A stretch of DNA of 51,538 bases, taken from a virus (Duplodnaviria > Heunggongvirae > Uroviricota > Caudoviricetes). This document shows positions 20,974 through 26,480 of the stretch, piece after piece. Under the pieces are notes generated by a model that made no database searches, was not told the DNA's origin, and saw nothing but the letters and a program-made list of their open reading frames with translations. Positions within the stretch are counted from its first letter, which is position 1; every line of letters starts with the position of its first letter. A program made the translations under genes and the position numbers. Where the stretch lies: positions 1-51,538 of the IMG/VR virus record IMGVR_UViG_3300026078_000021. One strand, given 5' to 3'.

Positions 20974-23900
20974 TCACATCCTGATGAACGCGCCGGCGGC
21001 AGGCAGGGCGCGTGTGGCGATCCGGGAACCGATCTTGTTGACGAGCCGGTCCATGTCGGCGTCGCCCATCACCTGGCTGCCGCGCAGGTCGACGTAGTTG
21101 CTGTAGGTCACGGCCTGCGTGCCGCGTCCCAGGTTGCTGCCGGCCAGAGTGCCGCCGGGCAGGTTGACGTTCGGGTTGATCGACGTGGTGATCGTGCCGG
21201 TGACCTGTTCAAGTTTTTTGCGTAGCGCTTCGGTCTGCGAGTCCAGACCGGTGATCAGGCCCTGCATGATCAGTTGCCCGTTGGCGACCAGCAGGATCTT
21301 GTCCCGCGCCGGCGGACCTTTCCACGAGGTCAGGTCGTGGGTGAAATTGTTGAGCCAGCCCTTCACGGTGCCCACCACGGATTTCAGACCGCCGAGCAGG
21401 CCGTTGAGGATGTCCTGGCCCGCTTTCCACAGCCACGTGCCGGCGTCGCTGAAGAACGAGACGATCGAATGCCACACGTCTTTCAGTGCTTTGCCGATGC
21501 TGCCGAGCGCGGTTTCGATGGCACCGGTAAAACCGCCCCAGATGCTGGAGGCGGCGCTGGCGACCGTGTGGCCGATTTCCCCGAGGATGGTCTTGAAAAA
21601 GCCCCAGACGTTGTTCCAGACGTCTTTCGCGATCTTCTCGACGTCACCCCACAGTTTGCTCCATTTCCCGGTGACCAGGTCGGCGAAGAGTTTGAAGAGG
21701 TCTTTCAGGAAATCCAACGCCGTGTTGATGGTCGTGGTGATCATCGTCCAGACGATTTTCACCGCGCCTTCGATGATGTCCCATCCGGCTTTCAAAGCGC
21801 CTTCGGTGTAGGTGATACCGGCGCTGATCGTCCCGGAAATCAGGTCCCACGCGACCTTCACGATCCCCCAGATGACGTCCCACGCCATGTGGAAAACGCC
21901 CTGGATGAGGTCCCATCCGGCTTTGAAGTAGCCGATCCACGGCAACACGACGATCTTGATCATGTTGGTGATCAGGTTGAGCTGGGAGCGCAGGAAACCC
22001 GAAATAGATTTCCAGTTCTCGGCGATCAGGCTGACGAGTTTCCCGCCGGTCGCGTCCCAGATCGTGGTCAGCGAACCCCAGATCGAGGAAAGATCGTCGC
22101 TGATGCGCTTCCACTCTTTTTCGAGCGGTGCCGCGATGTCCTTCCAAACGCCGGAGAAGAATTTCGCGACGGTGCCGGCGGTGCCTTTCAGCCAGCCCCA
22201 GAAATCCTCGAACCACGCTTTGACGGTTTTCCAGTGGGTGATGATCTCCAGCGCGACGCCGATGACCAGGCCGAGCGGCCCCATCAGCACCGTCAGTGCC
22301 CCGGCGACCAGGTTGACGTGCGCCTTGATCCAGCCCCACGCCTCGGCGGCGGTTTTCTTCAGCCAGCCCCAGAACGCCTCAAGCCATTTCTTGACCGTCG
22401 ACCAGTGCGTGATGATCAGCAGCGCGACCAGAGCGATCGCCGTGATCACCAGGATGATCGGGTTGGCTTCCAGGAACTCCATCGCGACGCTGAGCGCTTC
22501 CATCGCTTCTTTGACCATTTTGATGATCTTCACGACGGACAGGACCGCCACGAGCAGCGTCGCCAGGGCCCCGACGACGCCGAGGATGACGGCGGCGAGT
22601 TTCTGGTGTTTGCTGATCCAATCGGCGATCGGCTGGATGATCTTCATGATCACGTCGAGCAGTTTGGTGACCGCCGGCAGCAACGCGGTCCCGATGCGGA
22701 TCGCCGCGACCTGGACGGTTTCCTTGAACTGCGCGAGTTTCTGGTTGAAGTTGCTTTGGATCAGTTCCCAGCCATTGACGTCCTTGCCCGCGCCTTTCGC
22801 CGCGTCCGCGACCTTCTGGACGTTCTGCTGGAAAAGCTGGCCGTTTTTCGCCGAAAGCATCAGCATCGTGTTCAGGCCCGTGGCGCCGCCGGTCATCTTC
22901 TGCAACGCGGCGTTGAACGTCATCGCGTCCGGCTGCCCGGCTTTAAGCAGGTCGTTGAACCCGTTGGCCTTATCGGCGAGGGTCTGGAACTGCATCATCG
23001 CGTTGCGCTGAATAGGCGGCAGCGCATACAGCGCGTCACGGAACTGCTTGGCCGACATGCCCCCGGACAGGAACGAGTTCGCCAGGGACTGCATCTGCGG
23101 GGTCATCCCGGCGACCATCGCCTTGAGATCCTGCGCCGCCGCCGCCGACTTGTACCAGGTATTCAGCATGACCGTGCCGTTTTTGGTGTGCGCGGCGATC
23201 GCCTGAAGCAGGGTGTTCATCGTCCCGGTCAGGCCGTTCTTACCCAGATCCTGCGACAACTTGTTGCTGTCAATGCCCATCTGCTGCATCATCTGGATCT
23301 GCACGTTGTTCGGCGCCTGAAGCGAGCGGATGGTGTGCGCGAGATCCTGCGACGCCTGCTGCGCGCTCATGCCCTGCGCGGTCATCGTCGCGAGCGCCCC
23401 GCCGACCTGCGAGAAACTCAGGCCGGCGGCGTTGGCCACGGGCAGCACCGCCGACAGCGAAGCGCTCAGCGCCTCGGTGGTCGTCTTGCCGTTCTGCACC
23501 ACCGCGATGAGCTGGTTCATCGCCGCGACCGGCGTACCGACCGACTTGCCGTAGTCCAGCATGATCGTCGTCAGGGCGTTGCTGACAGTGCCCAGATCCG
23601 CGTTCTCCGCCTTCGCGCCCTCGGCTGCGGCTTTGAGAACATCAAGGCCTTTAGCGCCGGTGAAACCGGCGGACCCGATCATGTACATGCCCTTGGTGAG
23701 CTGATCGGTCGCGGTACCGGTGGACTGCGCGATGTTCAGGATGCCGTTGCGCACGGTGGCCAGCAGCGCCCCGGTCTTGTCCATCTCCCCGCCGGAGGTG
23801 GCCAGCACCGTGGTCATCGACTGGAAGCTCGCGGCGGCTTTCGAGGTCAAGAACCCCAGCGCCCCGACACCGATCGCGGTGGTGGCCGCCGCTGTCTTCA

Positions 23901-24453
23901 ATGCGCCGAGCGACGCCGCCCCGAGCCCGCTCTCACTGGACGCAGCGATCTGCGCGTCCTTCATCTCGGCCGTGCGGACCGTGACTTCCCTCTCGGCGAG
24001 CTGAAGGTCATCCAGCGCCTTGATCTGCGTGAGGGTGGCCTCTTTCACCGCCGCCGCCGCCGCGAGCGCGCTTTCCTTGATGACCCGGTAGGAGAACTCC
24101 TCCTCCTCGCTCAGGGCGGTGGTCGCGGCAGCCAGTTCCTCTTCCGCTTCACGCTGCAACGTCGCCCACTCCACCGCCTGCTCCTGCGCGTCACGCACAG
24201 CGGCGTTGGAGGCGGCCAGTTTCTCCTGCGCCGCCGTCTGCAACTCCACGGCCTGCGCATACGCGGCGGCGGACGCCTCGGCTTTGGCGTTGGCGGCGTC
24301 GATCTCCGCCTGGGAGCGGTTGGCCTTCTCGGCGGCCTCGGAGATGGCGTCGCCCATCGCGGTGAACGTCGCCCCGACGCGCCCGAGAATCCCGGACGCC
24401 TTATCAACCGCCTCCAGCAGCAGCAGGATCGTGACTTCCTCTTTGCCCGCCAT
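20974..24453 (-). CDS. Tape measure protein
   Basis: About 1160 aa; MAGKEEVTILLLLEAVDKAS; TP901-type core (KGMYMIGSAG, GGALATMT), TM segments, W/F-periodic repeats. Confidence 0.92.
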   Translation of the reverse strand: MAGKEEVTILLLLEAVDKASGILGRVGATFTAMGDAISEAAEKANRSQAEIDAANAKAEASAAAYAQAVELQTAAQEKLAASNAAVRDAQEQAVEWATLQREAEEELAAATTALSEEEEFSYRVIKESALAAAAAVKEATLTQIKALDDLQLAEREVTVRTAEMKDAQIAASSESGLGAASLGALKTAAATTAIGVGALGFLTSKAAASFQSMTTVLATSGGEMDKTGALLATVRNGILNIAQSTGTATDQLTKGMYMIGSAGFTGAKGLDVLKAAAEGAKAENADLGTVSNALTTIMLDYGKSVGTPVAAMNQLIAVVQNGKTTTEALSASLSAVLPVANAAGLSFSQVGGALATMTAQGMSAQQASQDLAHTIRSLQAPNNVQIQMMQQMGIDSNKLSQDLGKNGLTGTMNTLLQAIAAHTKNGTVMLNTWYKSAAAAQDLKAMVAGMTPQMQSLANSFLSGGMSAKQFRDALYALPPIQRNAMMQFQTLADKANGFNDLLKAGQPDAMTFNAALQKMTGGATGLNTMLMLSAKNGQLFQQNVQKVADAAKGAGKDVNGWELIQSNFNQKLAQFKETVQVAAIRIGTALLPAVTKLLDVIMKIIQPIADWISKHQKLAAVILGVVGALATLLVAVLSVVKIIKMVKEAMEALSVAMEFLEANPIILVITAIALVALLIITHWSTVKKWLEAFWGWLKKTAAEAWGWIKAHVNLVAGALTVLMGPLGLVIGVALEIITHWKTVKAWFEDFWGWLKGTAGTVAKFFSGVWKDIAAPLEKEWKRISDDLSSIWGSLTTIWDATGGKLVSLIAENWKSISGFLRSQLNLITNMIKIVVLPWIGYFKAGWDLIQGVFHMAWDVIWGIVKVAWDLISGTISAGITYTEGALKAGWDIIEGAVKIVWTMITTTINTALDFLKDLFKLFADLVTGKWSKLWGDVEKIAKDVWNNVWGFFKTILGEIGHTVASAASSIWGGFTGAIETALGSIGKALKDVWHSIVSFFSDAGTWLWKAGQDILNGLLGGLKSVVGTVKGWLNNFTHDLTSWKGPPARDKILLVANGQLIMQGLITGLDSQTEALRKKLEQVTGTITTSINPNVNLPGGTLAGSNLGRGTQAVTYSNYVDLRGSQVMGDADMDRLVNKIGSRIATRALPAAGAFIRM

Positions 24454-24733
24454 CCCCGCCGCCCCCCTCGCGTCGCGCGTCGCGTTCGCGGCGCATGTGT
24501 TCGAAGGCGGCCTGCGTCGCATCCGGGTCGCCCCGGGACTGCTGGCTCTGCACGGACCCCTGGATTTCCAGGAACTTCATCACGTCGTTGAAATGCTGGG
24601 GCGTCCATAGAGCCCAGGCGGTCTCCAACGTGAGACCGAAGCGCGTCCACAACGCCTCGCGGGTCCACACCTCGACCGCGAGCGGATGGCTGGAGCGCCC
24701 CGAGTAGGCGGCGCGGCGAAGCTCACTGGCGAA
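24404..24733 (-). CDS. Tail assembly chaperone extension (gpT-like), in the +1 frame
   Basis: GC3-rich frame FASELRRAAYSGRSSHPLAVEVWTREALW...; overlaps the end of the chaperone; no good RBS. Confidence 0.65.
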   Translation of the reverse strand, partial: FASELRRAAYSGRSSHPLAVEVWTREALWTRFGLTLETAWALWTPQHFNDVMKFLEIQGSVQSQQSRGDPDATQAAFEHMRRERDARREGGGGDGGQRGSHDPAAAGGG

Positions 24734-25247
24734 AGTCGGCCTCCGCCTCGGCGTCGCGTTCCTGCCCCTGCTCGGCGATCTGCCCCTCGACCGTCTCGAC
24801 CAGCACGTTGTACGGGCCAGACGGCAGGCGCGTGAGCGAGCGGCGTTTCGCGGACGCGGGGGAGAGCGGCAGCACCTGGTCGTGCTCGTCGGTCAGGTTC
24901 CAGTCCGTGACGGCGAGCATGAGCAGTTCGAGGCGGTAGGCGGCCTGGTCGACGGTGACGGCGGTCTGCACCGCCGTCTCCTGCTCTGGTGCCTCCTCCT
25001 GCGGGTCGCCCTCGGGCAGCAGCTTCCGGCGTGCCGCACGGTTACGAAGCCGTGCGGCCTCGGCCGCGCCCGCCGCTTTGGCGGCGTTACCGGTGCCGGT
25101 GGCACTGATCTGGATGCGCTTGCCTTCTGCCACGTCCAGGTCCGCGCCGGGCAGCGCGGCTTTCAGATCCACCCAGTACGGGCCCTCGCCGCTCGGGGAG
25201 GGCAACTCGACACGCACGGTGCCGGCGAAAGCGGACAGGAACCCCAT
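24723..25247 (-). CDS. Tail assembly chaperone (gpG-like)
   Basis: Between tail tube and tape measure; LAVTDWNLTDEHDQVLP motif; ends DFRQ*. Confidence 0.8.
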   Translation of the reverse strand: MGFLSAFAGTVRVELPSPSGEGPYWVDLKAALPGADLDVAEGKRIQISATGTGNAAKAAGAAEAARLRNRAARRKLLPEGDPQEEAPEQETAVQTAVTVDQAAYRLELLMLAVTDWNLTDEHDQVLPLSPASAKRRSLTRLPSGPYNVLVETVEGQIAEQGQERDAEAEADFRQ

Positions 25248-25265: not shown

Positions 25266-26480
25266 TTATAGTGTGAGGTAGTTCGAATCGATGACGGTCG
25301 CGGAGATCGTCTGGAGGGTGCTCAGGTTCAGGAACGCCTCGTAGGACAGGGACGTCATGATCACGTCTTCCATCTTCACCGCGTCCGTCGCGAGCTTGAT
25401 GTAAACCTTCGGAAGCGTGAAGATGATCGAGCCACCGGACGCCGGGTGCGCAAGCGTGAAGGTCAAAGCGCCGCTGGTGCCGTTGACCATCTGCGTGTAG
25501 TAACCCCACGTCGCGTCGTCCAGACTCGTGAACACCACGTCGATCTTGCCGCTGACGCGGCGGGTGACCGGGGTGAGGAACTGGAGGTTGTGGGAGGCGT
25601 TGAACGTGTACGTGGACACCAGGCCGTTCTCGACATCCATGGAGAAGTCAGTGGCCTGAAGCACACTCTGGCTAAAGAGGCTCACCGTGGCCTCGGCGAA
25701 CACGAACGGCGACTCGTTCACGATCGAGATCGCGGACGGGGAGTCCAGCACGGCGGAGGACTTGGCCACCAGGTCCGCGCTGAACGTCGCCTCGGTGTCA
25801 CCGTTCTGCGTGGAGATGTTGAACTTGTTGATACGCGCGCCGGCGAACTGGAGGCTGTCGAAGCCGCCCAGGTTCTTCTCCACCGTGAACGAGCTGAGGC
25901 TGTTGGCCTGCTGGACGGAGTGCGTGTACGGCGCCACCACACCGATGACCGCGACACCGGTCAGGTGCGCGTACGTCAACGCACTGTCCAACGTCAACGT
26001 GTTGGTGGTGATGTTGGTGATCTTCCGGCATTCCGCCGTCGTCGGCGTCGAGGTGTTGTTCACGTCGATCTGGATGACCTGGTTCTGCGACAACCCGGCG
26101 GCGGAGGTCACCGTGATCGTCGTCGCGCCGGCGGACGACCCGCCGCTCAGCGTCGTCGACCCGGTGCCGACCGTGCCGGTCACCCCGAAGCCGGCCTGCG
26201 CGTCCGGGCCGATCGCGCCGGCGATCAGCATCGCGCCGTTGGACGGGAACAGCGGGGCCGAGAGCGCCCCGGCGAGCTTGTACTGCCCATAGAGGGCAAA
26301 CGTGTTGAGATCCCGCTGGCCGAACATGACCTTCGGGCTGAACAGGCCGACGTCGAGCTGAAGTTCGTTGCCGGTCATCGGCACGAATCCGGTGGGAACC
26401 ACCGGCGTACCGAACGTGGCCTCCCTCGCCAGACCCGTCGCCGACAGCGAGCCATAACGCTCAACAACGGTAGTTGGCAC
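25266..26480 (-). CDS. Major tail (tube) protein with an inserted beta-domain
   Basis: GLAREATFGT..SFTVEK..RRVSGKIDV; GTG start with RBS GTAAAGGAG. Confidence 0.85.
   Translation of the reverse strand: MPTTVVERYGSLSATGLAREATFGTPVVPTGFVPMTGNELQLDVGLFSPKVMFGQRDLNTFALYGQYKLAGALSAPLFPSNGAMLIAGAIGPDAQAGFGVTGTVGTGSTTLSGGSSAGATTITVTSAAGLSQNQVIQIDVNNTSTPTTAECRKITNITTNTLTLDSALTYAHLTGVAVIGVVAPYTHSVQQANSLSSFTVEKNLGGFDSLQFAGARINKFNISTQNGDTEATFSADLVAKSSAVLDSPSAISIVNESPFVFAEATVSLFSQSVLQATDFSMDVENGLVSTYTFNASHNLQFLTPVTRRVSGKIDVVFTSLDDATWGYYTQMVNGTSGALTFTLAHPASGGSIIFTLPKVYIKLATDAVKMEDVIMTSLSYEAFLNLSTLQTISATVIDSNYLTL

Follow-up and report, generated by a model that had tools for sequence, protein, structure and literature searches.

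Tail assembly chaperone genes in long-tailed phages reportedly share a conserved translational frameshift (lambda gpG/gpGT), which Levin, Hendrix and Casjens are said to have described in 1993 and Xu, Hendrix and Duda in 2004, work that PMC5009743 summarises; the 2004 study is also said to accept members that do not shift by -1, such as Mu (-2), so that a missing -1 heptamer does not exclude membership of this functional class. Here a gene pair of this kind is analysed in a 51,538 nt stretch of DNA (the window; GC 67.6%), which forms the first 51.5 kb of IMG/VR virus record IMGVR_UViG_3300026078_000021, a 115,538 bp record with direct terminal repeats from an uncultured soil phage. The pair comprises a 174 aa chaperone-like protein, G, and an extension, T, in an overlapping frame. 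Comparison of homologous loci makes it likely that ribosomes produce a GT fusion by slipping +1 at the tetranucleotide UUU_C, close to the end of G. In lambda approximately one GT is made per 30 G (PMC5009743). [quoted passage not shown] The original prediction, which was made from the letters of the window, had called this a G/GT-type chaperone pair, and the gene order, the frames and a conserved T without a start of its own all agree with this. Judged from these features, the pair is very probably a lambda G/GT-type tail assembly chaperone that gives a short and a long protein.

The direction of the proposed shift has precedents. A TTT-CGC +1 site has been proposed for the tail chaperone pair of the HF1-group haloarchaeal myoviruses (Dyall-Smith et al. 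2020, PMC7230728), and HSTV-2 has been described as 'very likely +1' (PMC5009743). The present locus resembles the HF1-group pair in its gene position, in its need for a +1 shift, in a TTT-CGC near the stop of the first ORF, in the rarity of TTT within a GC-rich genome and in being a proposal from sequence. The HF1-group viruses differ in having archaeal hosts and contractile tails, and conservation was there seen among six close genomes, whereas here a deep family (30-50% identity, 39-69% GC) leaves only UUU_C constrained; the two systems are likened by site and position, not by homology. In the SEA-PHAGES chaperone annotations, the PRFect paper counts 350 forward (+1 or -2) versus 2368 backward sites, the annotated positions being approximate guesses of the annotators, and its motif class 'three identical bases' includes TTT (PMC10885494). 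With these forward cases the present locus shares an actinophage-type genome and a T frame that is +1 of G. The original prediction had the slip operate in a bacterial virus; it is not a first for viruses of prokaryotes, given the 2020 halovirus proposal (PMC7230728) and the forward chaperone shifts annotated in hundreds of actinophages (PMC10885494). The +1 chaperone shift is a rarer, already proposed version of lambda G/GT, and the idea is not new; what is new is an uncultured chaperone family whose deep comparison appears to isolate UUU_C as the constrained element.

G is encoded on the minus strand from ATG 25247 and ends GAC (24737-24735), TTT (24734-24732), CGC (24731-24729), CAG (24728-24726), TGA (24725-24723), which matches exactly the coordinates and the codons from which the original prediction had started. 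The TTT is the single in-frame TTT in G. It is not adjacent to the stop, CGC and CAG lying between them. The frame that closes at TGA 24406-24404 is +1 of G and open from 24892, and reads ...PTFASELRRAAYSG...; it is protein-like 3' of the site and consists of Arg-rich off-frame text 5' of it. The -1 frame, in which the tape measure gene is read, provides only an R/P/G-rich tail of 47 aa before two stops near 24590, and the downstream GC content at third codon positions (GC3) is 0.78 in the +1 frame versus 0.62 in the -1 frame. The sole protein-like continuation of G is the +1 frame. G has just one X_XXY_YYZ heptamer in phase, GGGCCCG at nt 62, 5' of the point where the -1 frame opens, and there is none in the overlap. 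In these respects the first reading was sound: the downstream coding frame is +1 and runs to 24404, the -1 frame is poor, no usable -1 heptamer is present, and a predicted translation with TTTC taken as one step has 280 aa, where about 280 had been expected.

A large protein collection contains 17 relatives of G, in which the motifs MGFL and WNLTD and residue F172 are invariant and R173 is nearly so; past F172/R173, similarity among the 17 is lost and their lengths differ. The DNA behind library relatives P0003-P0018 was examined for those lineages that are also in IMG/VR or GTDB. A locus scan with a single G protein as query gave no match. Alignment-based scans succeeded, and yielded 20 viral loci and one locus in a Streptomyces genome, L022 of Streptomyces sp. 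NPDC001634; these represent 15 distinct sequences with the window included. One marginal match (L021) was left out of the family counts. GC content spans 39-69% across the 15 distinct loci, whose G parts mostly share 30-50% identity. Among 50,697 GenBank phage records, no match was found either by blastn with the locus or by tblastn with G, GT, two homologue fusions or the neighbouring tail protein. Since no cultured phage in this collection is matched, the chaperone family is absent from those annotated.

At the F172 column, every one of the 15 distinct loci has a TTT codon with C as the base that follows. The codon before TTT is not conserved across loci, and the codon that follows may be CGC, CGT, CGG, CGA, CCA, CCT, CCG, CAC or CAG, encoding Arg, Pro, His or Gln. 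Indeed, the bases TTTC are the only invariant ones in the 100 nt from -36 to +64 around the site. TTT is at the same time a rare codon: genome-wide, Phe is encoded by 96 TTT and 648 TTC (12.9% TTT), and in the G and T genes of 12 GC-rich loci, with the site itself excluded, by 4 TTT and 63 TTC (approximately 6% TTT). Because TTT is kept in every lineage and is followed by C whatever the next amino acid, the constraint acts on the RNA or its nucleotides and not on the protein. By this comparison, the TTT_C pattern exceeds chance. Moreover, the comparison suggests that the constrained element is UUU_C and not UUU_CGN, the motif originally named. TTTCG had been expected at the ends of homologous chaperones; TTTC is indeed invariant there, and it is the expected G after it that fails, the following codon being CGN, CCN or CAN.

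The geometry of the two frames is equally constant. T is +1 of G in 15 of 15 loci, and in every one of them the +1 frame is open across the site, with the zero-frame stop falling 3 to 43 codons beyond it. This bears on the question of whether the frame break is real, since the window is known from a single metagenome-derived record and could carry an assembly or sequencing indel, the true gene being one ORF; equally, the gene could be decaying and T dead. Such an artefact or decay is extremely unlikely, as the same +1 geometry recurs in 15 independently assembled, diverged loci and T is conserved at the protein level. Nor was a homologue found in which G and T are continuous: a word-index search with the T region gave no in-frame G-T fusion at lengths of 154-490 aa, and phmmer against 1.84 billion representatives gave no continuous G-T protein of any length, only short ORFs and an unrelated repeat protein (P0024).

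The T domain is conserved and is 78-124 aa in length, and ends at or just inside a downstream ORF of > 670 aa. Conservation in the T frame starts directly after the Phe, with an HPL(I/A)xxxW block approximately 15-22 residues in; in loci L004-L007 this block lies 5' of the G stop. Where overlaps are long, GC within the overlap peaks at the third position of the +1 frame (0.80-0.88), which indicates that the coding signal changes frame at TTTC. Ungapped positional identity past the site was uninformative (0.23 in the zero frame and 0.25 in the +1 frame, both of which read the same bases), and GC3 phase and ORF extent were used instead; substitution-phase counts among close pairs were too few to inform. 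Other +1-compatible codons in the overlap (TCC_C, CCC_G, AAA_C and two GGG_C) were rejected, as they lie off the conservation boundary and were not seen to be conserved.

A conserved T domain could in principle be a separate protein with no frameshift involved, translated from an internal start such as GTG 24670 or by ribosomes that re-initiate after terminating G. Gene callers treat it in this way, for all T relatives in the library are stand-alone ORF calls of 72-115 aa; however, the called starts, and with them the first residues, differ between the proteins. Across the family no conserved start codon or Shine-Dalgarno (SD) sequence is present in the +1 frame. In the window the first +1-frame start is GTG 24670, which lies 20 codons past the site and has no SD; in L003 no such start precedes codon 34, and in L019 and L020 the first 45 codons past the site contain none. 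Conserved T residues and the +1 GC3 signature are found 5' of any start. Re-initiation is ruled out, because in L004-L007 and L022 conserved T residues lie 5' of the G stop. Only in L005-L007 is an ATG, at T codon +22, preceded 6-7 nt upstream by AGGAG or AGGA. In this subclade a shorter, T-only protein may also be initiated independently. The ATG occupies positions 3054-3056 of L005, 3045-3047 of L006 and 3048-3050 of L007, within a conserved ...IQEIWMRE... block. Separate initiation gives no reason for an invariant TTT_C, and as a general explanation of T it is unlikely. The original prediction had likewise seen no convincing ribosome binding site for T. Independent initiation at GTG 24670, which it had named as contrary to its own reading, is unlikely given the missing SD, the lack of conservation and the conserved T residues upstream of that codon.

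The frameshift reading may be put in mechanistic terms. Most ribosomes would make the 174 aa G protein and stop at TGA 24725-24723. In a minority, peptidyl-tRNA-Phe (anticodon GAA), sitting on UUU 24734-24732 through a G-U wobble, would move one base forward and form Watson-Crick pairs with UUC, gaining a G-C pair. Reading would resume at GCC AGU GAG... in the +1 frame to give the 280 aa GT, the T domain of which would end 50 nt inside the tape measure gene. By analogy with lambda GT, the proportion of GT is probably a few per cent. The best-supported reading of the alignments places the slip in the P site, and the UUU-to-UUC slip of tRNA-Phe that the original prediction had favoured gains from the invariance of UUU_C in 15 loci and would still be the best explanation.

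Slips at UUU are known from other settings. A passage of PMC5009743 cites UUU_Ynn as the +1-prone tetranucleotide of bacteria and as the proposed site of the Yersinia YopN-TyeA fusion. The present site shares with it a UUU followed by a pyrimidine, a freedom from any adjacent stop and a tRNA-Phe(GAA) that gains a G-C pair by slipping; slips at UUU_Ynn are error-level or incidental events in cellular genes, whereas the site in this family appears to be under selection and to serve in setting a protein ratio. Influenza A PA-X (UCC_UUU_CGU) and the UUU_CGN +1 motifs of amalgaviruses involve eukaryotic ribosomes and a slowly decoded CGN (PMC3498833; Nibert et al. 2016). A P-site slip from UUU to UUC is common to these and to the present proposal, and UUU_CGN words are present in the window. 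Unlike PA-X, which has UCC in the E site, the family has no conserved E-site codon, and its A-site codon may be CGN, CCN or CAN. The slow A-site codon of the influenza case has no counterpart here, as CGC outnumbers every other Arg codon in the phage (1137, versus 109 CGA and 38 AGA). At the stop-stimulated +1 sites of prfB (CUU_UGA) and of Listeria phage tsh (CCC_UGA), the shift codon directly precedes the stop. The present site differs from these too, the stop not being adjacent and lying up to 43 codons away in homologues.

A -2 shift, of the kind suggested for phage Mu, could also reach the +1 frame and would give the junction ...DFR-ASELR. Both shifts lead into the same frame and sequence geometry alone cannot separate them. 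For a -2 shift, however, tRNA-Phe would need to pair with ACU, AGU, GGU or similar, or else four A-site tRNAs (Arg, Pro, His and Gln) would each need to pair with UUC; the bases 5' of TTT are not conserved and the site has no run of identical bases longer than TTT. A -2 shift is consequently regarded as very unlikely. Transcriptional slippage needs long homopolymers; the run here is of three T only, and this explanation is also unlikely. A tRNA that reads a quadruplet was considered and rejected, the phage tRNA-Phe being called as an ordinary GAA tRNA of 74 nt.

Several observations weigh against a P-site slip at UUU_C, in addition to the codon +22 start of L005-L007. The rest of the genome does not avoid in-frame TTT_C, of which there are approximately 40 cases in 116 crudely called genes, and the base after a Phe codon is C for 42% of TTT versus 23% of TTC genome-wide. 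Because TTT_C is so common, the tetranucleotide alone cannot be very efficient, and either a low rate of shifting is enough or a context element helps. No conserved 3' RNA structure was found (the consensus fold has 0 pairs), the 80 nt fold in the window is no better than that of shuffled sequence (z = +0.56), and the family has no conserved upstream SD. Moreover, CGC is abundant and is served by the phage's own tRNA-Arg(ACG), so the usual 'hungry codon' pause is missing.

This leaves room for a +1 shift by some other mechanism, in which an incoming tRNA binds out of frame without P-site slippage, or an acidic nascent peptide provides the stimulus, UUU_C being necessary and insufficient. The abundance of in-frame TTT_C elsewhere would fit such a requirement, as would a strongly acidic stretch (GAN codons) that precedes the site in nearly all members. 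The stretch varies in sequence, however, and may be a mere linker; no stimulator is conserved at the nucleotide level, and conservation of exactly the tetranucleotide that allows perfect re-pairing fits P-site slippage best. A mechanism of this other kind is judged quite unlikely. A GGAGG (24740-24744) 5 nt before the TTT, which recalls the SD stimulator of prfB, was rejected as a family feature because it is present only in the window and in L003, its closest relative.

Returning to the P-site slip at UUU_C, since TTT_C is unavoided in the genome the site is probably weak, and a weak site is what a G:GT pair needs. In L002 and L015 (positions 2507-2510 of each) G has a second in-frame TTT_C, at its codon 3 inside the invariant MGFL, where the window has TTC. 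That a TTT_C is tolerated there, although a slip would abort translation early, fits a low intrinsic rate of shifting. A screen that used reporters and mass spectrometry also lists TTT_C as one of the tetramers at its most efficient +1 sites (bioRxiv 10.1101/2025.10.02.679949). Whether bare UUU_C would be sufficient as a programmed +1 signal that sets the G:GT ratio, with no slow A-site codon, stop, SD or RNA structure to assist it, is a matter of roughly balanced judgement, inclining slightly to the negative.

The identity of G was addressed further through its predicted fold. An AlphaFold model of G from the 17-sequence alignment has a predicted local distance difference test score (pLDDT) of 82.5. 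In VIA-align three phage-related chains rank first: the YqbN/XkdN-type 3klu (Z 7.9 over 98 residues), then 3fgx at Z 5.9, and 2ob9, the tail assembly chaperone of HK97, likewise at Z 5.9 with 93 of 104 residues aligned; unrelated rows reach Z <=3.8, and values of Z below 8 fall in what the tool describes as a grey zone. No match to the PDB was significant in Foldseek, the top row being again 3klu (E 0.46). The model suggests a chaperone fold for G, with scores in the grey zone and gene position as the main evidence.

The position of the chaperone ORF, between the phrog_290 tail protein gene and the tape measure gene (Table 1), is standard for a tail assembly chaperone pair. The phrog_290 gene product is probably the tail tube subunit, on the basis of its location next to the chaperone on the upstream side; beyond it, again upstream, is an HK97-gp10-like gene. 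The gene order is kept in 15 of 15 loci, where an ORF of > 670 aa begins at, or just before, the end of T. In the window the T frame extends 50 nt beyond the tape measure ATG (24404-24453). With the tape measure gene in the -1 frame of G, all three frames are in use within approximately 330 nt. Outside the window the record carries 31 tRNA genes in clusters (G000:C1:53172-57580 and 111730-113437), which include tRNA-Phe(GAA), tRNA-Arg(ACG), tRNA-Arg(CCG) and tRNA-Ile(TAT). The GC content of 67.6% and the Streptomyces prophage relatives suggest that the host is probably an actinomycete.

Table 1. Features at the chaperone locus, in coordinates of the window.
Feature	Coordinates	Strand	Basis
G-like tail assembly chaperone ORF, 174 aa (P0001), ends ...DFRQ*	24723..25247	-	Translation, gene position, 17 homologues, AlphaFold model
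Proposed +1 site TTT_C, where P-site UUU would re-pair as UUC	24731..24734	-	Invariant in 15 distinct loci
T-like extension, +1 frame, 108 codons + TGA 24406-24404	24404..24730	-	Open frame, conserved domain, GC3
Predicted GT fusion, 280 aa (P0002), junction ...EAEAD-F-ASELR...	24404..25247	-	Translation with TTTC as one step
Tape measure protein gene, 1159 aa from ATG 24453	20974..24453	-	PF10145 2.1e-26; many tape measure PHROGs, best 5e-65
Tail protein gene upstream of G, 404 aa, probably the tail tube subunit	25266..26480	-	phrog_290 tail protein 1.2e-24

The marginal match L021 (positions 2204-2928) is a G-domain relative with a WNLTDE block. Its protein-like extension lies in the -1 frame, with GC3 of 0.88 and 57 codons past the stop, and no in-phase X_XXY_YYZ heptamer was found in it. 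A change between -1 and +1 solutions may have taken place among related chaperones.

Overall, the family is a clear comparative case of a minimal signal for +1 recoding in bacteria, in which the gain from a G-U to a G-C pair in the P site may suffice for the low level of shifting, a few per cent, required by a tail chaperone. GT genes of this type are split or missed by gene callers, all of the library T entries being arbitrary short ORFs, and annotation software built around -1 heptamers or rare A-site codons will miss such sites. Many chaperone pairs could be recovered from metagenomic phages by a rule that seeks, where the coding signal switches frame, a conserved rare TTT with C as its next base. 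If bare UUU_C is sufficient, then this family, taken together with the halovirus case, would represent a general and largely unannotated second solution to the tail chaperone ratio in the viruses of prokaryotes.

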